Assembly (NCBI GenBank): GCA_003220335.1
Contig: QHSB01000233.1
Location: 5,397 to 69,396, forward strand
DNA: 64,000 bases
Direction: 5' to 3'
From: Candidatus Rokuibacteriota bacterium
Lineage (GTDB): Bacteria > Methylomirabilota > Methylomirabilia > Rokubacteriales > CSP1-6
Below, piece by piece: positions 134 through 26,414 of the stretch. Position numbers and translations under genes: made by a program. Within the stretch, counting starts at the first letter, position 1. Each line of letters starts with the position of its first letter. Under the pieces are notes generated by a model. The model made no database searches and was not told where the DNA came from. It saw only the letters and a list, made by a program, of their open reading frames with translations.

Positions 134-511
134 ATGCCCGCGAGTGAGTCGCCCCGGCGAAGGATCCTCGTGGTCGATCACGAGCAGGACATCATCGACA
201 TTCTTCAGGAACACCTGGCGACGACCTATGACGTCACGTCGGCCCGCGACGGCAGGCGGGCGCTCGAGTTGGTCCGCGCCACGCATCCCGATCTCATCTT
301 CCTCGATATCGCCATGCCGGGCATCAACGGGATGGACGTCCTGAAGGCGATGAAGCAGCTCGACCCGACCGTCCCGGTCATCGCGATCACCGCGAAGGCC
401 AATACCTCCCTCGCGGCGGAGGCCATCAAGTGCGGGGCTTTCAGCTATTTTCCGAAGCCTTTCGATCTCAGATACCTGGAGCATCTTGCCGCGTCGGCAT
501 TGAGCCGCTGA
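134..511 (+). CDS. CheY-like response regulator, receiver domain only
   Basis: 125-aa ORF. RILVVDHE...DLIFLDIAMPGINGMDVL...AITAKA...PKPFD matches the REC acidic pocket, phospho-Asp, Thr and Lys pattern. Paralogue of 2658..3071. Confidence 0.9.
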   Translation: MPASESPRRRILVVDHEQDIIDILQEHLATTYDVTSARDGRRALELVRATHPDLIFLDIAMPGINGMDVLKAMKQLDPTVPVIAITAKANTSLAAEAIKCGAFSYFPKPFDLRYLEHLAASALSR

Positions 512-558: not shown

Positions 559-972
559 TCAGCGCCGGCGCAGCGCCAAGGCGAGTGACCGCAGTCGCAA
601 CATTATCGAGGTCCTGTCGCCGTTGCTCGCCGGCGGCGATGCGGCCGTCGTATCGGTCACCGTCTCCCTGAGCGACGGCACGAGCACCGCCGGCAGGGGT
701 TCGGTGATGATCAGCCCGATGCCATGCTCGCTGACGTGACGAACTTCGGCCTGCCGGACGAACCTTGCTTCGCTGTGCGGGACGTGAACCTCGACAGCGC
801 AGCTCTCGCCGTGACGAATCGCGCCAGAGGCAAGAGCGTCCTCGCCCAGAGCGAGTCGCAGTCCGTGGAGGCTGGCGTCCATCGCCTTGGCGGCGATCGC
901 TTTCCCGCCGCCGATCAACAGCCGTGCTGACCAAGCGACCTGCCGGCGCGGCCAACGACGGCGTTCTATCAC
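559..972 (-). CDS. PilZ domain protein (putative c-di-GMP receptor)
   Basis: 137-aa ORF. N-terminal RRRWPR (RxxxR) followed by DASLHG (D/NxSxxG), the two PilZ signature motifs. Confidence 0.7.
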   Translation of the reverse strand: MIERRRWPRRQVAWSARLLIGGGKAIAAKAMDASLHGLRLALGEDALASGAIRHGESCAVEVHVPHSEARFVRQAEVRHVSEHGIGLIITEPLPAVLVPSLRETVTDTTAASPPASNGDRTSIMLRLRSLALALRRR

Positions 973-1160
973 GCAGCGCCTCCGGTTGAGAGGACCTCGG
1001 GAATGGATGCTGCCGTGGGGTCTGCAGCAAAGGCCGCGCCACGGCGCACGAGCAGCAAAGTCGGCGGGTTAGTCGACGAGGCTGGGCTCGGGTATGTGCC
1101 GAGTGGTCACCACGGTGACGTAAAACGACAGCCCGGCGCCCTGTCCTTCCAGGCGAGCGC

Positions 1161-1691
1161 CTACTGCGCCATGATTCCGCCGTCGACCGTCAGGATCGCC
1201 CCGGTCGTCCACGCAGCCTCATCCGACGCGAGATGGAGCACGGCCTGGGCGATCTCGTCCGGCCTGCCGAGCCGACCGAGCGGTACTCGACCCTCCATCG
1301 CCTTTCGCACCGCGGGGTCCGTCAGCCGTTGCAGCGGATGCCGTCCTTCGCGTAATGCACGGCGATCGTCTTCGTGAGCATCGCCACGCCGGCCTTCGCC
1401 ACGGCGTACGGGTGGACCGGAAACGCGAGGGCGGCCTTCAGGCCGAGGACCGAACCGATGCTGACGATCGAGCCGCCGCCCTGGCGCTGCATGTGAGGAA
1501 TGACCGCCCGTGACCACGCCCACGAGCACCGCCCCGGCGCCAACGACGGAGCCGATCGCTTCGACGCCGCGTCCTTGCATCGCCTCCAGGTGCGCGCCAC
1601 GCGCGACGAACGAGACGTCGTGCCCCGCTTTCGCGAGAAGCGCGCCGTAATATCCGCCGATCCCGCCCGATCCGAGCACGGCGATTCGCAT
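1161..1691 (-). pseudogene. Chimeric remnant: ketopantoate-reductase-like N-terminus joined to a frameshifted short-chain dehydrogenase C-terminal half
   Basis: The ORF begins MRIAVLGSGGIGGYYGALLAKAGHDVSFVARGAHLE (PanE/ApbA Rossmann N-terminus). It ends GRLGRPDEIAQAVLHLASDEAAWTTGAILTVDGG (SDR C-terminus). The SDR catalytic segment SIGSV...YAVAKAG...GIRCN lies in a different frame (ORF 1322..1600) and stops at about 1322. Confidence 0.6.
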
Positions 1692-17796: not shown

Positions 17797-18114
17797 CGCC
17801 GCACGAGCGCGGTTCGTGCATCCCCGACCCAGTTCTGCGGCGCCAATAGGCATCCCCCTCGGCGACGACTAGATTCATCACGTGGGAGGGTCCCACGTCG
17901 CTCGGCAGGTGCACGACAAATCCTCCCGCGACGAGACCGGTGCCCGTCGAAGCCAGGGGCCGGGCCGATCACTGTCGAATCACGAGTGGGCGCGACGACG
18001 AAAGTGTTGTTGCCTTTCCGCGCAGGATTCCCATATGCTCATGAAATCAGCGAACTATCGTTCTCGGCGACATCCGCCGACGACCGCCGAAGCACACAGG
18101 GATCCAGACAGAGC

Positions 18115-20117
<2,003 letters not shown>

Positions 20118-20136
<19 letters not shown>

Positions 20137-21704
20137 CCACCGCGCGGATCCTGATCGTCGACGATCAGCCGAGCAACGTCCGTCTGCTCGAGCGGGTGCT
20201 CGTGACCGCCGGGTATCAGGACCTGATGAGCACGCTGGACCCGCGCGAGGTCCTCGAGCGGTACCGTACGTTCCAGCCCGACCTGATCCTGCTCGATCTG
20301 CTCATGCCGTACCTCGACGGCGTGGCCGTCCTCGAGCAGCTGGCGACCGAGCTCCCCGCGGGCGCCTTCGTGCCGGTGATCGTCCTCACCGCGGACGTGA
20401 CGTCCGACGCCAGAAGTCGCGCCCTCACCGCGGGCGCCCACGACTTCCTCACCAAGCCCTTCGAGCAGCTGGAGGTCGTGCTGCGCATCCGAAATCTCCT
20501 CAATACACGCCGCCTGTACCTGACGCTCGAGCGCCAGAACCGCTCGCTCGACGAGACGGTGCGGGAGCGGACGGAGCGGCTGCTGCAGAGCGAGAAGGTG
20601 GCGACCATGGGCTCGCTGCTGGCCGGCGTCGCCCACGAGCTGAACAACCCGCTGGCCGTGCTCTCGGGACAGGCGCAGCTGCTGCGCGAGACCGTGACCG
20701 AGGCCGCGCTCATCCGGCGCGCGGGAAAGATCGGCGACGCGGCCGAGCGGTGTGTTCGGATCGTCCGCAACTTCCTGGCGCTCGCGCGCCAGCGCCCGCC
20801 GGAGCGAACGGAGGTGGCGATCCCCCAGGTCGTCCAGAGCGCCGTCGGGCTGCTCGCCTACGAGCTTCGGACGGAGGGGATCGAGGTCGCGCTCGAGGTC
20901 GCGGCCGGACTGCCGGCCCTCTCGGCCGATCCGCACCAGCTGCATCAAGTGCTCGTCAACCTCATCGCGAACGCCCAGCAGGCGATGCGCCGGAGCCCCC
21001 AGCCGCGTCGCCTCGCCATCAGCGCGTCCCACGATGCCGCCCGAGGCCTGCTCTGTCTGACCGTGGCCGACACGGGCCCGGGTATCCCGGCGGAGATCCG
21101 CGCCCGCGTCTTCGAGGCGTTCTTCACGACCAAGCCTCCGGGCGAGGGCACGGGGCTGGGGCTGTCGCTGTGCCGGAGCATCATCGAGGAGCACGGCGGG
21201 ACGATCGACGTCGACAGCGAGCCGGGCCGGGGCACGCGCTTCACGATCGAGCTGCCGGTCGCAGTGCAGCCTGTCGCGCACGCCGGCGCCGCCTCGGCCG
21301 CGCCGCCGCCGCCGATCGGTCCGAAGACGATGCTCGTCGTTGACGACGAGCCGGAGATCGCCGCGGTCATCGCCGAGGCGCTGGAGCGCGACGGACACAA
21401 GGCCGACGTCGCGACGAACGGCGCCCTCGCCCTGACGATGCTCGGCATGCGCTCGTACGATCTCGTGCTCTCCGACACGAAGATGCCCGTGATGGACGGC
21501 GAGGCGTTCTTCGCCGAGCTCGTGCGACGTGACCCGACGTTCCGACGGCGGGTGATCTTCCTGACGGGCGACGTGCTGAGTCGCGAGAAGCGCGAGTTCC
21601 TGGAAGGCACCGGCGCGCCGTTCCTGACGAAGCCCTGCGATCTGGGCGACGTCCGGCGTCTCGTGCAACAGGTCGTCGCGCAGAACGCCGGCCCGAGTCC
21701 CTAG
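20118..21704 (+). CDS. REC-HisKA-HATPase_c-REC hybrid kinase/response regulator
   Basis: 528 aa. N-terminal RILIVDDQP...[11 protein letters not shown]; AHELNNPL H-box; GTGLGLS G2 box; C-terminal REC. Overlaps the upstream gene by 19 nt. Confidence 0.85.
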
Positions 21705-22045
21705 GACGCCTCCTCGGTCGAGCGAGCGAACTCGGCGTCGAGCGTTCGCTTCACCATGGAGAGTCGGACCGCGATGAGGGCGACGGAGGCGTCGAAGCCC
21801 ACCGGTTCGATGAGTCGCAGCGTGTCGGAGGCGAGAAATTGCTCCTTCGCCATCTGAAGCAGGGCGTTGAAGTTCAACGCCAACCCGCCGGGGCCGATCA
21901 CGCGCGTGTGCGGTGGACGAACGAGCGTGACGGCGTCGAGCATTCGCTGGATCGCGCGAGCGACCTCGACCTTCGTCGGCACCGCCTGGCGTACGCGCTG
22001 CGGGAATGAATCGGAGGAAATGCTGAGGTCCGAGACGGTCCACAT
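21701..22045 (-). CDS. Hypothetical 114-aa protein preceded by a c-di-GMP-I riboswitch
   Basis: GGAGG lies 8 nt before the ATG at 22045. It is the only substantial ORF downstream of the riboswitch. No signal peptide, TM helix or recognisable domain. Confidence 0.65.
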   Translation of the reverse strand: MWTVSDLSISSDSFPQRVRQAVPTKVEVARAIQRMLDAVTLVRPPHTRVIGPGGLALNFNALLQMAKEQFLASDTLRLIEPVGFDASVALIAVRLSMVKRTLDAEFARSTEEAS

Positions 22046-22104
22046 GACAGTCCCCTCCTAAGAGTGGTGACTCTCTCCGGGAGGTGGACTCGAGTCCGGC
22101 CTCT

Positions 22105-22195
22105 CCTTCTTCGGTAACCCGGCTACCTGGGAATCATTCCCAGGCCCGTGGCTTTGCGTCCCAGCCTCACGACTGGTTTGCCTTTATCGGAAAGA
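22105..22195 (-). promoter_or_regulatory. GEMM-I (cyclic-di-GMP-I) riboswitch aptamer
   Basis: The minus-strand RNA is GGCAAACC-AGUC-GUGA-GGCU-GGGACGCAAAGCC-ACGGGCCUGGGAAUGAUUCCCAGGUAGCC-GGGUUACC. It matches the conserved blocks of the V. cholerae Vc2 aptamer, including a GNRA-capped P1b hairpin. Confidence 0.85.
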
Positions 22196-22214
22196 GCGTC
22201 GGTCAGCTAGTAGG

Positions 22215-22229
22215 GCAATCGAGGTGCCA
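22215..22229 (-). promoter_or_regulatory. Sigma-54 (-24/-12) promoter
   Basis: The minus strand reads TGGCAC-CTCGA-TTGC, a perfect match to TGGCAC-N5-TTGC. It is correctly oriented, and its -12 element ends 32 nt upstream of the riboswitch core. Confidence 0.75.
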
Positions 22230-22379
22230 AGCTCACCCATTCTGAAACCCTTGAAAAGACGCGACCCCGCCGGCGGCGGTGGCCGCATCCGAGACGGCGG
22301 CGTGGCACGCGTGGCTAGAAACTGATCAACCCGGCGGCGCCCCTTTCGTTTCATCCGCCCATGCCTCAGTATCCTCGCC

Positions 22380-23066
22380 ATGATCTCGACCCATTCGCTC
22401 GTCCTCGGGCTGGCCGCGGCACTGACGCTGCTCACGGTCTCCGACGCGCCGGCCGGTCCGGCCACGGAGCAGCTCCGCACGTCGGTCGATCAGGTTGTGA
22501 AGATCCTCTCGGACCCGGAGCTCAAGAAAGAGGCGAGGTCGCTGGAGCGTCGCCGGTCGATCCGCGCCATCGCCAACCAGATCTTCGACTTCGGCGAGAT
22601 CTCCCGACGAAGCCTGGCGCTGCACTGGCAGGCGCGCACGCCGGCGGAGCGCGAGGAGTTCACGCGTCTCTTCGGGGACTTGCTCGAGCAGTCGTACATC
22701 TCGAAGATCGAGAATTATTCCGGCGAAAAGATCCAGTACGTCGGCGAGACGGCCGACGGCGACCGCGCCGTGGTCCGGACGCTGATCGTGACGAAGCAGG
22801 GCACGGCGATCCCGGTGGACTACCGCATGTTCCCGCAGAGCGACCGCTGGCGGGCGTACGACGTCACGCTCGAGGGCGTCAGCCTCGTCGCCAACTACCG
22901 CGCGCAGTTCAACGCCATCATCCAGCGCCACGGCTATCCAGACCTCGTCGCGAAGCTGAAGGTGAAGTACGACGAGCGCCCCGGACCGCGCGAGACCGGC
23001 CTTCGTGGCGAGACCGGCGGCCGCGCGGTCACCGCGCCGGTGCCCTCAGAGCGTCAGTCGCCCTAG
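22380..23066 (+). CDS. mlaC: MlaC/Ttg2D-family phospholipid-binding periplasmic protein
   Basis: Signal peptide. IFDFGEISRRSLALHW...ERE.F...F..LLE.SY...YRM....RW.AYDV.LEGVSLV.NYR.QF matches the MlaC family pattern. Confidence 0.8.
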   Translation: MISTHSLVLGLAAALTLLTVSDAPAGPATEQLRTSVDQVVKILSDPELKKEARSLERRRSIRAIANQIFDFGEISRRSLALHWQARTPAEREEFTRLFGDLLEQSYISKIENYSGEKIQYVGETADGDRAVVRTLIVTKQGTAIPVDYRMFPQSDRWRAYDVTLEGVSLVANYRAQFNAIIQRHGYPDLVAKLKVKYDERPGPRETGLRGETGGRAVTAPVPSERQSP

Positions 23067-26000
23067 CCGTTCGGCCCAGAACGTCATCCCGAGCTCCCCG
23101 AACGTCCGCTGCGCGGCGGCGAGATGCTCGGGTGACCCCGTGATCCTGGCCAGCGTCGCATGGCACCAGCCGCCCTCCGGACGCGCGCCGAGCTCACGCG
23201 CGAGGGCGAGCGCCTCCTCCGCGCGGGTGCGCGCCGTCGCCGCGTCGCCGTCGCCGAGCCGCAGCTCCGCTTCCAGGCGCAGCAGCGGGCCGCGGTAGCC
23301 GCGCGCGTCGCGCTCGGTCATGTCGGCGAGGCCGCGCGCGATGATCGGCCGGGCCTTGTCGGGACACCCCGCGGCGAGATAGACCGCGGCCGGCACCGAG
23401 CCGAAACGTGTCCATTGTAGCTGCGCGCCCGCCGGCCGCTCGAGGCCGCGCTCGAGATATTCGAGTCCGCGCGCGCGATCACCGCCGAGGAGCGAGGCCC
23501 AGGCGAGATAGAGTCCGTTGGCGCAGACGCCGTGCATCAGGTCGTGCTCCTCGGCGATGGCGAGCCCGCGCGTGAGAGCGACAACGGCCGCCTCCAGATC
23601 GCCCTGGAGCAGCTTCAGGTAGCCGAGAAACGCGTTCGCGATCGAGAGGCTCGAGGCGTGCCGGATCTCCGTCGCCATCCGGAGCGCCTCGGTGGCGGAG
23701 GCGAGGGCGGCGTCGAAGCGTCCCAGCGCACCCTCGGCCTCCGAGCGCCAGCCGCACAGGCTCACGAAGATCGGATAGACGAGCCCGGGCTCGTGGCCCT
23801 CGCCGGCCGTCGCGAAGAGCTCGACGCCGATGTCGAACTCCTCGACGGCCTCCTCGAAGCGTCCCATGTCGCGGCACGCGATGGCGGCGATGAAGCGCGC
23901 GTAGCTGCGCGTCCGCAGATCGCCGGCATCAGCGCGCGTCGCGGCCTCCCGCGCGCGCTCGAGCGCGCGGTGTAGCGTGCCCGGGATCGCGCCGGCCAGC
24001 GCGATCGCCTGCGCCTGCCGCACCTGCACGCGGGCGAGGCGCGGGCCGTCGTCGAGCGACCGCGCCAGCACCTCCACCTTGTCGCCGAGGGCGCCGAGCC
24101 CATCGACCTGGCCGGTCGAGATCCGCGTCGACCACAGCTCGAGGTATGCGTCCAGCTCGAGGTTGTGATCCGCCGCATCGCCCAGACGTTGGAGCGCGTC
24201 GACGCTGGCCTCGTAGAACGTCACCGCCGTGCCGTAGCGCGCCTCCGCCTGCGCCTTCGCCCCGGCGCGATAGAGATAGGTCGCCGCCGACGTCCACACC
24301 TCGCCGCGGACCGCGTGGTGCGCCAGGACCTCGACGCTCTCGGGCGCGTGGCCGCGTTCCCGTGACTCGAGCGCGGTGAGGACACCCGCGTGGACCAGGC
24401 GTCGACGCTCGCGGAGCAGGCTCTGGTAGGCCACCTCGAGCGTGAGCGCGTGCTTGAAGGTGTATTCGAGCTCGGGAAACAGGCTGGTCTCGTAGAGGAA
24501 CTCGGCGGCCTGCAGCTGCGCGAGGCCGCGCCGCAGCTCCAGCGCTGTCGTCTCTGCCACCGTCTCGAGCAGCGTGAGGGCCACGGTCTTGCCGATGACG
24601 GCGGCCGACTGGAGCAGGTGCTTGATCGACGGCGGCAGCCGGTCGATCCGCGCGGCGAGCACGGCCTGGACGGTGGCCGGCACCTGGATCGTGTCCAGCC
24701 CTTTCGCGAGCCGGAAGGAGCCGCGCTCGCCGGCGACCACGCCCGTCTCGACGAGCGTCCGCACGCTCTCCTCGAGAAAGAACGGATTGCCCTCGGTGCG
24801 GTCGAGGAGCAGGCGCTTGAGCGGCTCCAGCGGACGGCCCGCGCCCAGCAGTGCGTCCAGCAGCGCCGCCGCGCTCTCGGCCGCGAGGGGATCGATCCGG
24901 AGCTGGGTGTAGTAGGTCTTGCCGCCCCAGCCGTGCTGGTACTCGGGGCGATAGTTGACGAGCAGCAGCACGCGCGCCGTCGGCAGACTCTCGACGAGGC
25001 TGTCCAGGAGCGCCTGCGTCTCGCTGTCGATCCAGTGCAGGTCCTCGAAGAGGAGGGCGACCGGCTGCACCCGACTCTCGCGCAGCACGAACCGTTTGAT
25101 GGCGTCGAGGATGCGCTGGCGGCGCTCGGCGGCGCCCAGCGCGTCCCACTGGCGATCGCCCGCCGGCGTCCCGAGCAGCGCGAGCAGGGCCGGCAGCGCG
25201 TCGCGCAGCGTCTCGTCCAGCGTGAGCAGCTTGCCGGTGACCTTCTCGCGTACGACGCGCGGCTCGTCGCGCTCCTCGACCTTGAAATACATCCGCAGCA
25301 GGTCGATCACGGGCAGATACGGCGTCGCCTTGCCGTAGGAGACGGACGCCGACTCGAGGACCAGCCAGCCGTCGGTGAGGTGTGAGCGGCTGAACTCCCA
25401 GTACAGCCGCGACTTGCCGACGCCGGGCTCGCCGACCACGGCGACGAGTTGCCCGGAGCCGGCGCGTGAGCGGTCGCGCGCCAGCGCCAGCTGCTGCAGC
25501 TCGGGATCGCGGCCGACGAAGCGCGTGAGCCCGCGCGCGGCGGCCGCGTGCAGCCGCGAGCGGATCGGCGAGGCGCCGGTGAGCTCGTAGACCTCGAGCG
25601 GCGCGTCGAGGCCCTTCACCGGCCGCGGTCCCAGCGGCCGCGTGAGGACGTAGCCCTCGATCAGGGCCAGCGTCTCCGACGGAATCAGGATCGTGCCCGG
25701 CATGGCCATCTGCTCCATGCGGGCGGCCAGGTGTGTCGTCTGGCCGATCGCCGTGTAGTCCATGTGCAGATCGCTGCCGATGGAGCGCACGACCACCTCG
25801 CCGGAGTTGAGGCCCACGCGGATGTGGACCGGCAGCCCGAGGCTGCGATGCAGCTCCTCCGCGTGCTCCTTCACCCGCTGCTGCATCCGGAGGGCGGCGT
25901 AGCACGCGCGGACGGCGTGATCCTCGTGGGCGATCGGCGCGCCGAAGAGGGCCATGATGCCGTCGCCCATGACCTGGTTCACGGTGCCCTCGTAGTGGTG

Positions 26001-26384
26001 GACGGCCTCGATCATGCGCTCGAGCACGGCGTCGAGCAGCCGGCGGGCGTCCTCGACGTCGCGGTCGGCCAGGAGCTCCATCGAGCCCTTGAGGTCCGCG
26101 AAGAGCACGGTGACGTGCTTGCGCTCGCCCTCGAGGGCGCCGCGCGAGTCGAGGATCTTCTCCGCGATGTGCGTGGGCGTGTACTCGGCCGGTGAGGCGA
26201 AGCGCGTCTCGACGGCGGGGGCGGCGGCGCCCGCGGGCAGCGCGCACTCCGGGCAGAATTTCGCTCCCGGCGGCAGGCGCGTCCCGCAGCGCGCGCAGGC
26301 GGCCGCCGCCGCCAGCGGCGCCGCACACTCGACGCAGAACTTCGCGGCGGGCGGACTCTCGTGCTGGCAGCGGACGCACTTCAT
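23046..26384 (-). CDS. Double zinc-ribbon, class III adenylate/guanylate cyclase, AAA (STAND-like) ATPase and TPR protein
   Basis: MKCVRCQ...FCVEC and CARCG...FCPEC ribbons. VTVLFADLKGS...GDGIMALFG cyclase core. GEPGVGKS Walker A. A long helical repeat C-terminus. Confidence 0.85.
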   Translation of the reverse strand: MKCVRCQHESPPAAKFCVECAAPLAAAAACARCGTRLPPGAKFCPECALPAGAAAPAVETRFASPAEYTPTHIAEKILDSRGALEGERKHVTVLFADLKGSMELLADRDVEDARRLLDAVLERMIEAVHHYEGTVNQVMGDGIMALFGAPIAHEDHAVRACYAALRMQQRVKEHAEELHRSLGLPVHIRVGLNSGEVVVRSIGSDLHMDYTAIGQTTHLAARMEQMAMPGTILIPSETLALIEGYVLTRPLGPRPVKGLDAPLEVYELTGASPIRSRLHAAAARGLTRFVGRDPELQQLALARDRSRAGSGQLVAVVGEPGVGKSRLYWEFSRSHLTDGWLVLESASVSYGKATPYLPVIDLLRMYFKVEERDEPRVVREKVTGKLLTLDETLRDALPALLALLGTPAGDRQWDALGAAERRQRILDAIKRFVLRESRVQPVALLFEDLHWIDSETQALLDSLVESLPTARVLLLVNYRPEYQHGWGGKTYYTQLRIDPLAAESAAALLDALLGAGRPLEPLKRLLLDRTEGNPFFLEESVRTLVETGVVAGERGSFRLAKGLDTIQVPATVQAVLAARIDRLPPSIKHLLQSAAVIGKTVALTLLETVAETTALELRRGLAQLQAAEFLYETSLFPELEYTFKHALTLEVAYQSLLRERRRLVHAGVLTALESRERGHAPESVEVLAHHAVRGEVWTSAATYLYRAGAKAQAEARYGTAVTFYEASVDALQRLGDAADHNLELDAYLELWSTRISTGQVDGLGALGDKVEVLARSLDDGPRLARVQVRQAQAIALAGAIPGTLHRALERAREAATRADAGDLRTRSYARFIAAIACRDMGRFEEAVEEFDIGVELFATAGEGHEPGLVYPIFVSLCGWRSEAEGALGRFDAALASATEALRMATEIRHASSLSIANAFLGYLKLLQGDLEAAVVALTRGLAIAEEHDLMHGVCANGLYLAWASLLGGDRARGLEYLERGLERPAGAQLQWTRFGSVPAAVYLAAGCPDKARPIIARGLADMTERDARGYRGPLLRLEAELRLGDGDAATARTRAEEALALARELGARPEGGWCHATLARITGSPEHLAAAQRTFGELGMTFWAERLGRLTL

Positions 26385-26414
26385 GGCGGGCAACGCTACC
26401 GCGTGACCGGGCGC

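Follow-up and report, generated by a model that had tools for sequence, protein, structure and literature searches.

The DNA considered here is a window of 64 kb, analysed over its whole length, from an uncultured soil bacterium of Candidatus Rokuibacteriota (Methylomirabilota), and the element in question lies in a gap of 334 nucleotides (nt) at 22046..22379. This gap separates a small gene on the reverse strand (ATG at 22045) from a divergently oriented MlaC gene on the forward strand (start at 22380). A first-pass annotation had placed in the gap a sigma-54 promoter, a riboswitch for cyclic di-GMP (c-di-GMP) and a helix that can sequester the Shine-Dalgarno (SD) sequence, and all the strings and coordinates that it gave were confirmed on the sequence. 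Read together with its relatives, the gap probably holds a self-contained cassette, in which a sigma-54-type promoter leads into a c-di-GMP-I aptamer and the aptamer governs the translation of a protein that partners a PilZ receptor.

The comparison draws on the loci of relatives, six of which come from GTDB genomes (all of them metagenome-assembled genomes of Candidatus Rokuibacteriota or Methylomirabilota) and a further 63 of which are soil metagenome contigs; where single loci have to be told apart, they are given as L followed by a number. Two alignments were used, one of protein homologues (A1) and one of 46 distinct orthologous leader sequences (A2). Where a locus still includes upstream sequence, it almost always has both GGCA[CT]-N5-TTGC and the aptamer block GGCAAACC, with a distance between promoter and aptamer of about 45 nt, or of 60 nt where a 5′ hairpin has been inserted. 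Invariant or nearly so in A2 are TGGCA and TTGC of the promoter, the ligand contacts and the interhelical C and G of the aptamer, CGCTCTTTCCGA on the 5′ side and CCGAAGAAGGAGAGG on the 3′ side. The flanking genes vary from locus to locus (MlaC in the window; elsewhere a luciferase-like monooxygenase, an NMT1-type binding protein or a major facilitator superfamily (MFS) transporter), and the cassette therefore goes with the small gene and not with its neighbours.

The aptamer

The whole window was scanned with Rfam covariance models at their gathering thresholds, the best match per clan being shown, and the sole match was RF03167 (c-di-GMP-I-GGC, clan CL00126), with 73.3 bits against a gathering score of 59, an E-value of 1.8e-15 and coverage of model positions 1-80 of 80. 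It lies on the strand of the small gene, in its 5′ leader. Two lower-scoring CL00126 matches that overlap it were masked by the clan filter and presumably include RF01051, the family to which the leader had been assigned by eye; that earlier c-di-GMP-I call holds for the clan, with a score above gathering, while the best model is RF03167 and not RF01051. All 20 relatives that were scanned match RF03167 as well (68-76 bits).

In the 46 sequences of A2, 98.1% of the cells of the aptamer structure are paired, against 28-56% in slid controls, and compensatory double changes are seen at three pairs of the second hairpin (28 cells). In the Vc2 aptamer the ligand is contacted by G20, A47 and C92 (PMC4744006, PMC6140456), and covariance-model alignment finds G, A and C at the equivalent positions here, each of them invariant in the 46 sequences; the first of these, the G equivalent to Vc2 G20, had been identified correctly by eye. 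An interhelical Watson-Crick C:G pair between the two hairpins is universally conserved in the class (PMC4744006), and the two bases that would form it here, C in GGGAC and G in the unpaired AG of GGUAGCC, both occur without variation in A2, which suggests that the pair forms in this aptamer too. By score, structure and pocket, the aptamer is a member of the c-di-GMP-I clan CL00126. Its likely ligand is c-di-GMP, because the canonical G20/A47/C92 contacts are present, and the PilZ link of the gene product (see below) fits this ligand.

The promoter

The pattern TGGCAC-N5-TTGC has a single exact match in the 64 kb, both strands considered. Shuffled windows contained 0.09 matches on average, which agrees with the earlier chance estimate of about 0.1, and at least one match in 9 of 100 shuffles; by itself this statistic is suggestive, and it is the comparative data that make the case for a promoter convincing. 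Specifically, the GG of the -24 element and the TTGC are invariant in the 46 distinct leaders while the 5-nt spacer is free to vary, and the -24/-12 element keeps a fixed distance to the aptamer across proteins down to 43% identity. Uniqueness, invariance and spacing thus all speak for the sigma-54 promoter that the first-pass annotation had called. A looser scan with TGGC-N7-YTGC returned 19 sites in the window, only two of which lie between genes and in a proper position ahead of one, and no sigma-70-like site was found in 21400..22700 by a scan for sigma-70 promoters of the usual kind.

Further conserved elements lie upstream. The pattern G[GA]TCA-N7-G[GA]YCA-N4-5-TG[CT]CA, whose weak point is that it was defined after viewing the sequences, occurs 87-111 nt 5′ of the -24 GG in 24 of the 38 distinct upstream regions compared, with near variants of it in the others, and has one match in the whole window on both strands. 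This match is 25 nt long and starts 99 nt upstream of the -24 GG, that is, at about -110 to -135 from the predicted start, and is a candidate activator site. Between it and the promoter, a T-rich element (TTTYC-N6-8-TT) is nearly invariant in A2 at about 28 nt 5′ of the -24 GG, and its position suggests that it may be a site for integration host factor (IHF) or for DNA bending. The T-rich element had also been considered as a terminator, and this was rejected, as the stem is inconsistent between loci.

The promoter thus fits the sequence and conservation criteria of sigma-54 promoters, and would be expected to depend on sigma-54. The predicted start places the pyrimidine tract CGCUCUUUCCG at the very 5′ end of the transcript.

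Leader types on one cassette

The same promoter cassette is followed by three types of leader, namely one with no riboswitch, one with a short riboswitch and one with a long riboswitch that includes a relay of complementary tracts. The first type is found in L078 (242..398), which has the upstream element, a CTTTTC element and TTGGCACCTCGATTGCC, with -24, spacer and -12 identical to the TGGCACCTCGATTGC of the window. The Rfam scan of L078 gave no riboswitch match, and TTGC is separated from the ATG by only about 26 nt; the gene that follows encodes P0092, a fusion of 227 amino acids (aa) between the N-terminal domain and PilZ. Since the cassette occurs there on its own, it is the promoter that stays constant, and the riboswitch has been either inserted or lost. 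The ‘two-key’ arrangement proposed in the first-pass annotation is supported, with the qualification that the keys are separable, L078 having the promoter only.

Short leaders occur in L004, L005, L010, L034, L039, L044, L049, L053 and L060-L069. In these, the purine tract that follows P1, the helix closing the aptamer, is the SD sequence itself, and the start codon comes 6-9 nt later. The window and most other loci have long leaders with about 50 extra nt, in which a small GC hairpin, CCUCC(C), CGGAGAGAG and usually ACUCUU precede the real SD sequence AGGAGGGG. The protein of L010 is 99% identical to that of the window, and its leader is missing exactly the relay of about 42 nt, reading GGAGAGGCCGG directly followed by GGACUGUCAUG (L010 2981..3010 compared with window 22097..22054); this leader may have arisen by a natural deletion or may be an artefact of assembly. 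It is conceivable, if doubtful, that one cassette acquired three interchangeable leaders within one lineage and that the relay changes or even inverts the sign of the c-di-GMP response. If this were true, close relatives including L010 would wire the same two-input gate differently for a helical partner of PilZ receptors that had not been recognised before.

Some leaders deviate in other ways. L004 and L053 have a 15-nt insertion between promoter and aptamer, which folds into a 5′ hairpin (GUGCCGguagcagCGGCAC) where the transcript is predicted to begin. In L019 (around 824) and L055 (around 1600) the leader is joined directly to about codon 31, just before an IQRML/IHRML motif, with an identical endpoint in the gene and a junction that lies after the aptamer in L019 and inside the second hairpin in L055; these joins could be deletions, pseudogenes or chimeric assemblies.

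The expression platform

No intrinsic terminator was found in 21400..22700. Because of this, and because the 5′ strand of P1 is overlapped by a pyrimidine tract (tract a, CGCUCUUUCCG) and followed downstream of the aptamer by purine and SD tracts, control of translation is the best reading of the leader and a probable one. The tracts concerned are lettered a to e in Table 1. Tract a is nearly invariant in A2 and complementary to both purine tracts; it can pair with GAAGAAGGAGAGG (tract b, itself conserved in A2) in two registers, with 93.5% and 95.3% of cells paired and no covariation. The second purine tract (d, CGGAGAGAG) is invariant in all 26 distinct long leaders, even where its local partner ACUCUU is lacking (L003, L018, L038, L051), an argument for pairing with the 5′ tract, which is equally invariant. 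L049 has GCGGUC in place of this 5′ tract, along with a newly arisen complement, GACCGU, that covers its GUG start codon.

Folded to minimum free energy (-76.3 kcal/mol, z = -2.8), the window leader contains both aptamer hairpins and lacks P1. In this fold, CGCUCUUUCCG pairs with CGGAGAGAGU over 10 bp (a with d), and the GAGG of the first purine tract pairs with CCUC. Tract c can pair either with b or with the true SD sequence: a b:c helix over the small hairpin is seen in the predicted fold of the window, and c:SD is predicted in its place in relatives of the L001 type. The competition between CCUCC, GGAGG and AAGGAGAGG that had been proposed earlier is therefore seen in predicted folds, but that reading had missed CGCUCUUUCCG and CGGAGAGAG, and in the models the competition is part of a longer relay that starts at the 5′ strand of P1. 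The ribosome-binding site (RBS) is strongly structured in these models, and the energy needed to open it in the window leader is predicted at 10-12 kcal/mol.

The small protein and its link to PilZ

The 114-aa protein has 26 homologous clusters of 53-94% identity, all unannotated, and a profile search of 1.84 billion representative proteins found only 29 clusters. The gene is thus real and belongs to a tiny conserved family of helical proteins. No sequence match was found for it in Pfam, NCBIfam or PDB, and its AlphaFold2 model (pLDDT 77, pTM 0.67) shows long helices packed as a bundle, the N-terminus being disordered. Among PDB folds the top match, to the proteasome activator Bpa (E-value 0.23, TM-score 0.57), was rejected as a generic helical bundle without significance.

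Fusions provide a lead to its function. In the distant relatives L005 and L060-L069 the homologue makes up the N-terminal half of a protein of 225-226 aa with a C-terminal PilZ domain (24.6-27.7 bits against a gathering score of 22.5), and P0039, P0040 and P0092 are further PilZ fusions. The N-terminal half of the fusion is 63% identical to the window protein over 52 aa (E-value 5e-19), and the C-terminal half is 57% identical over 103 aa (E-value 2e-36) to a standalone PilZ protein of the window (559..972), where each half has a gene of its own, about 21 kb from the other. The gene that had been described as tiny and unknown is indeed small and without a family match, but is not wholly anonymous. 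Since its homologues are fused to PilZ domains, and since the C-terminal half of the fusion matches the standalone protein, the small protein most likely works jointly with a PilZ receptor of c-di-GMP.

The standalone PilZ gene has no riboswitch. Its upstream region contains a second conserved promoter of the sigma-54 type, TGGCGC-GGCCT-TTGCT, 55 nt before the GTG start codon, and its homologues in L070-L077 keep TGGC[GC]C-N5-TTGCT at 67-75 nt upstream of the start; most of them also keep an upstream inverted repeat, CGTCACC-N3-GTGACCAC. A single-domain response regulator adjoins the PilZ gene, in convergent orientation in the window (134..511, forward strand) and on the same strand upstream of the PilZ gene in L070, a relative of 70% identity (993..1334).

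Feature coordinates and gene neighbourhood

Table 1. Positions in the window of the features of the small-gene leader and of the PilZ gene
Feature	Position	Strand	Basis or remark
Upstream element GATCAGTTTCTAGCCACGCGTGCCA, candidate upstream activating sequence	22303..22327	-	Conservation in relatives
T-rich element TCTTTTCAAGGGTTTC	22244..22259	-	Between upstream element and promoter; conservation
Sigma-54-type promoter, TGGCAC-CTCGA-TTGC (TGGCACCTCGATTGC)	22229..22215	-	Exact pattern match and conservation
Predicted transcription start	near 22203	-	From the position of the -24/-12 element
5′ pyrimidine tract a, CGCUCUUUCCG	22188..22198	-	Overlaps the 5′ strand of P1
Aptamer of the c-di-GMP-I clan	22191..22109	-	Rfam match, full model
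Aptamer core, GGCAAACC...GGGUUACC	22182..22113	-	GUGA tetraloop at 22170..22167
Equivalents of G20 / A47 / C92	22182 / 22155 / 22114	-	Covariance-model alignment
Purine tract b, GAAGAAGGAGAGG	22100..22112	-	Abuts the 3′ strand of P1
Purine stretch AAGGAGAGG	22108..22100	-	Immediately 3′ of the aptamer
Small hairpin GGAC-UCGA-GUCC, then tract c	22079..22097	-	Tract c is CCUCCC, 22084..22079
Second purine tract d, CGGAGAGAG	22071..22079	-	Conserved in long leaders
Tract e, ACUCUU	22065..22060	-	Precedes the SD sequence
SD sequence AGGAGGGG	22059..22052	-	GGAGG at 22058..22054, 8 nt before the ATG
Small gene, 114 aa	21701..22045	-	Helical-bundle protein; fused to PilZ in relatives
Standalone PilZ gene, 137 aa	559..972	-	Promoter at 1027..1041 (-)

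Signalling genes are abundant around the small gene (17986..26393). A hybrid histidine kinase with a MASE4 domain (17986..20136, forward strand) is followed by a second hybrid kinase of receiver/HisKA/HATPase/receiver architecture (20118..21704, forward strand), which is convergent with the small gene and overlaps its end by 4 nt; on the other side, a protein with zinc-ribbon, class III nucleotidyl cyclase, AAA and TPR parts is encoded at 23046..26393 on the reverse strand. Many relatives with long leaders have a gene for an MFS transporter about 100-120 nt downstream on the same strand, possibly co-transcribed with the small gene (L001 6465..7826, with equivalents in L023, L027, L040, L044, L048 and L053), and this gene is absent from the window.

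Alternative explanations

Several observations weigh against the cassette as read here, and they are considered together with the explanations that they would favour. With regard to the ligand, the best-scoring Rfam model is that of a variant family, and a GGDEF motif was not found in a pattern search of the window and the loci. RF03167 is moreover the best clan member in all 20 relatives scanned, and many relatives carry the G that this model has 5′ of the C92 equivalent, as might be expected of a specificity variant of the RF03167 type that senses a ligand other than c-di-GMP. The base concerned (window 22115) toggles between A and G across A2: A is found in the window group, L004, L005, L024, L046 and L060-L069 (UUACC or CUACC), and G in L001-L003, L022-L028, L034 and L038-L044 (UUGCC). 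The RF03167 consensus has, in addition, a conserved G at model position 37, the equivalent of A47 (CGC-G-AAg), and the consensus together with the naming pattern suggests that ‘GGC’ stands for G20/G47/C92. At this signature position the window and all 46 relatives have A, not G, and the equivalents of G20 and C92 are canonical, as is the A before C92 in the window; the gene product is, furthermore, tied to PilZ, a c-di-GMP receptor. Another ligand is improbable on these grounds, and on the same reading of the name RF03167 would win through overall sequence similarity to that sub-lineage (top bit score; flanking consensus AAAGGCAAACC, GCCACGG, AGCCGGG and CCGAAG), with a pocket that is that of the parent class. 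Far less credible still is an aptamer for 3′3′-cyclic GMP-AMP (cGAMP) in the fashion of GEMM-Ib. Although the fold is identical to that of cGAMP riboswitches, and both ligands are bound by certain natural members (PMC6140456), position 20 is A in riboswitches for cGAMP (PMC6140456) and an invariant G in the 46 sequences, and wild-type Vc2, which has G20, binds cGAMP at about 10 uM as opposed to picomolar c-di-GMP (PMC6140456). The preference for c-di-GMP over 3′3′-cGAMP, already expressed in the first-pass annotation, is upheld by this G.

With regard to the promoter, a six-frame search of the window and the loci, with GAFTGA/ESELFGH and RpoN-box patterns only, revealed neither rpoN nor a gene for an enhancer-binding protein. 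The match to TGGCAC-N5-TTGC could be due to chance, as the shuffles at this window size illustrate, or be a conserved element of another kind, either a binding site or a part of the RNA, in which case transcription would start elsewhere, for instance at an unusual sigma-70 promoter to which the scan is blind. This has a low probability when set against 46 sequences in which GG and TTGC are invariant around a freely varying spacer, the fixed spacing to the RNA element, and the conserved upstream and T-rich elements at classical positions; the same element is also present in L078 without a riboswitch, and a similar one is conserved upstream of the PilZ partner gene. With regard to the output, folding was repeated for 40 distinct leaders (13 short, 27 long) with the aptamer and P1 enforced. 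The predicted RBS opening energy changed from 8.6 to 10.3 kcal/mol in the short leaders (n=13) and from 12.5 to 13.8 kcal/mol in the long ones (n=27), rising in 29 of the 40 and falling in 10, which is a shift of only 1-2 kcal/mol; the unpaired probability of the RBS is nearly equal in both states. The RBS is predicted to be buried in both modelled states, and an open state may escape the model. The thermodynamic modelling thus leans weakly towards an OFF switch, too weakly to commit to a sign. None of the platform helices is proven by covariation, and the tracts can pair in many registers, 64-75% of cells being paired in slid controls. Translational riboswitches are often coupled secondarily to Rho, and the main target of the riboswitch might be elongation or stability (e.g. 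by way of RNase access or termination by Rho) rather than ribosome binding. That is rather unlikely, since P1 has SD or anti-SD sequences as its competitors, the SD sequence directly abuts P1 in relatives with short leaders and an intrinsic terminator is absent; control at the level of translation remains the better reading of the leader.

Comparison with known systems

The aptamer resembles Vc2 and RF01051 in its two hairpins closed by P1, the GGCAAACC and GGGACGCAAAGCC blocks, the GNRA tetraloop, the G20/A47/C92 contacts, the interhelical C:G and the position in a 5′ leader on the gene strand (PMC4744006, PMC6140456). It differs in its best model (RF03167, from the consensus of which the window departs by having A for G both in CGC-G-AAg and before the C92 equivalent), in its rokubacterial host, in the sigma-54-type promoter and in a relay of purine and pyrimidine tracts where a terminator would stand. 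The GEMM-Ib riboswitches mostly use terminators, and their hosts are rich in sigma-54 promoters. These riboswitches (the c-AMP-GMP riboswitches of Geobacter) share the fold and the clan, but have A at the G20 position (PMC6140456), whereas the leader described here has G and no terminator.

Each of the parts is of a known kind, and a promoter and a riboswitch in series are an already known design. Salmonella mgtA, for example, combines a PhoP-dependent promoter with a Mg2+-sensing leader in the two-level control of one gene; the likeness lies in a regulated promoter and a ligand-sensing leader in series on a single gene, and the difference in the sigma factor and the ligand. Classical sigma-54 promoters (glnAp2, nifH, Pu) consist of an activator site, an IHF site and a -24/-12 element. 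The window matches them in TGGCAC-N5-TTGC, in an element about 100 nt upstream and in a T-rich element between the two, but its putative promoter feeds directly into a riboswitch. Within the literature searched, no description was found of a GEMM riboswitch paired with an RpoN promoter. For the protein, the closest likeness is to PilZ receptors such as YcgR, in which a partner domain stands N-terminal to PilZ. The small protein has this same place in the PilZ proteins of relatives, although here this domain is a helical bundle without a Pfam match and the halves are separate genes in the window.

Biological meaning

Taken together, the small gene would be transcribed from an enhancer-dependent promoter of the sigma-54 type, composed of the upstream element, the T-rich element and -24/-12, and its RNA would start almost directly with the aptamer, which most likely binds c-di-GMP. 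As CGCUCUUUCCG shares bases with the 5′ strand of P1, and its alternative partners are the purine tracts downstream of the aptamer, the formation of P1 on ligand binding would re-partition the competing helices a:b, a:d, b:c and c:SD, ending at the SD sequence, and the output would most likely be control of translation initiation. The product would be a small helical domain working with a PilZ c-di-GMP receptor, as one polypeptide in relatives and as two genes here.

This extends c-di-GMP riboswitches to uncultured Rokubacteria, and provides a comparatively supported case of a putative enhancer-dependent promoter that directly feeds a second-messenger riboswitch. Such an arrangement would be a natural two-input gate, with an activator signal read at transcription and c-di-GMP at translation. 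The PilZ fusion is the first functional lead for an orphan family and predicts a physical partner, encoded at 559..972, for the small protein. Finally, the natural series of none, short and long riboswitch leaders on the same promoter offers ready constructs for studying how expression platforms evolve.

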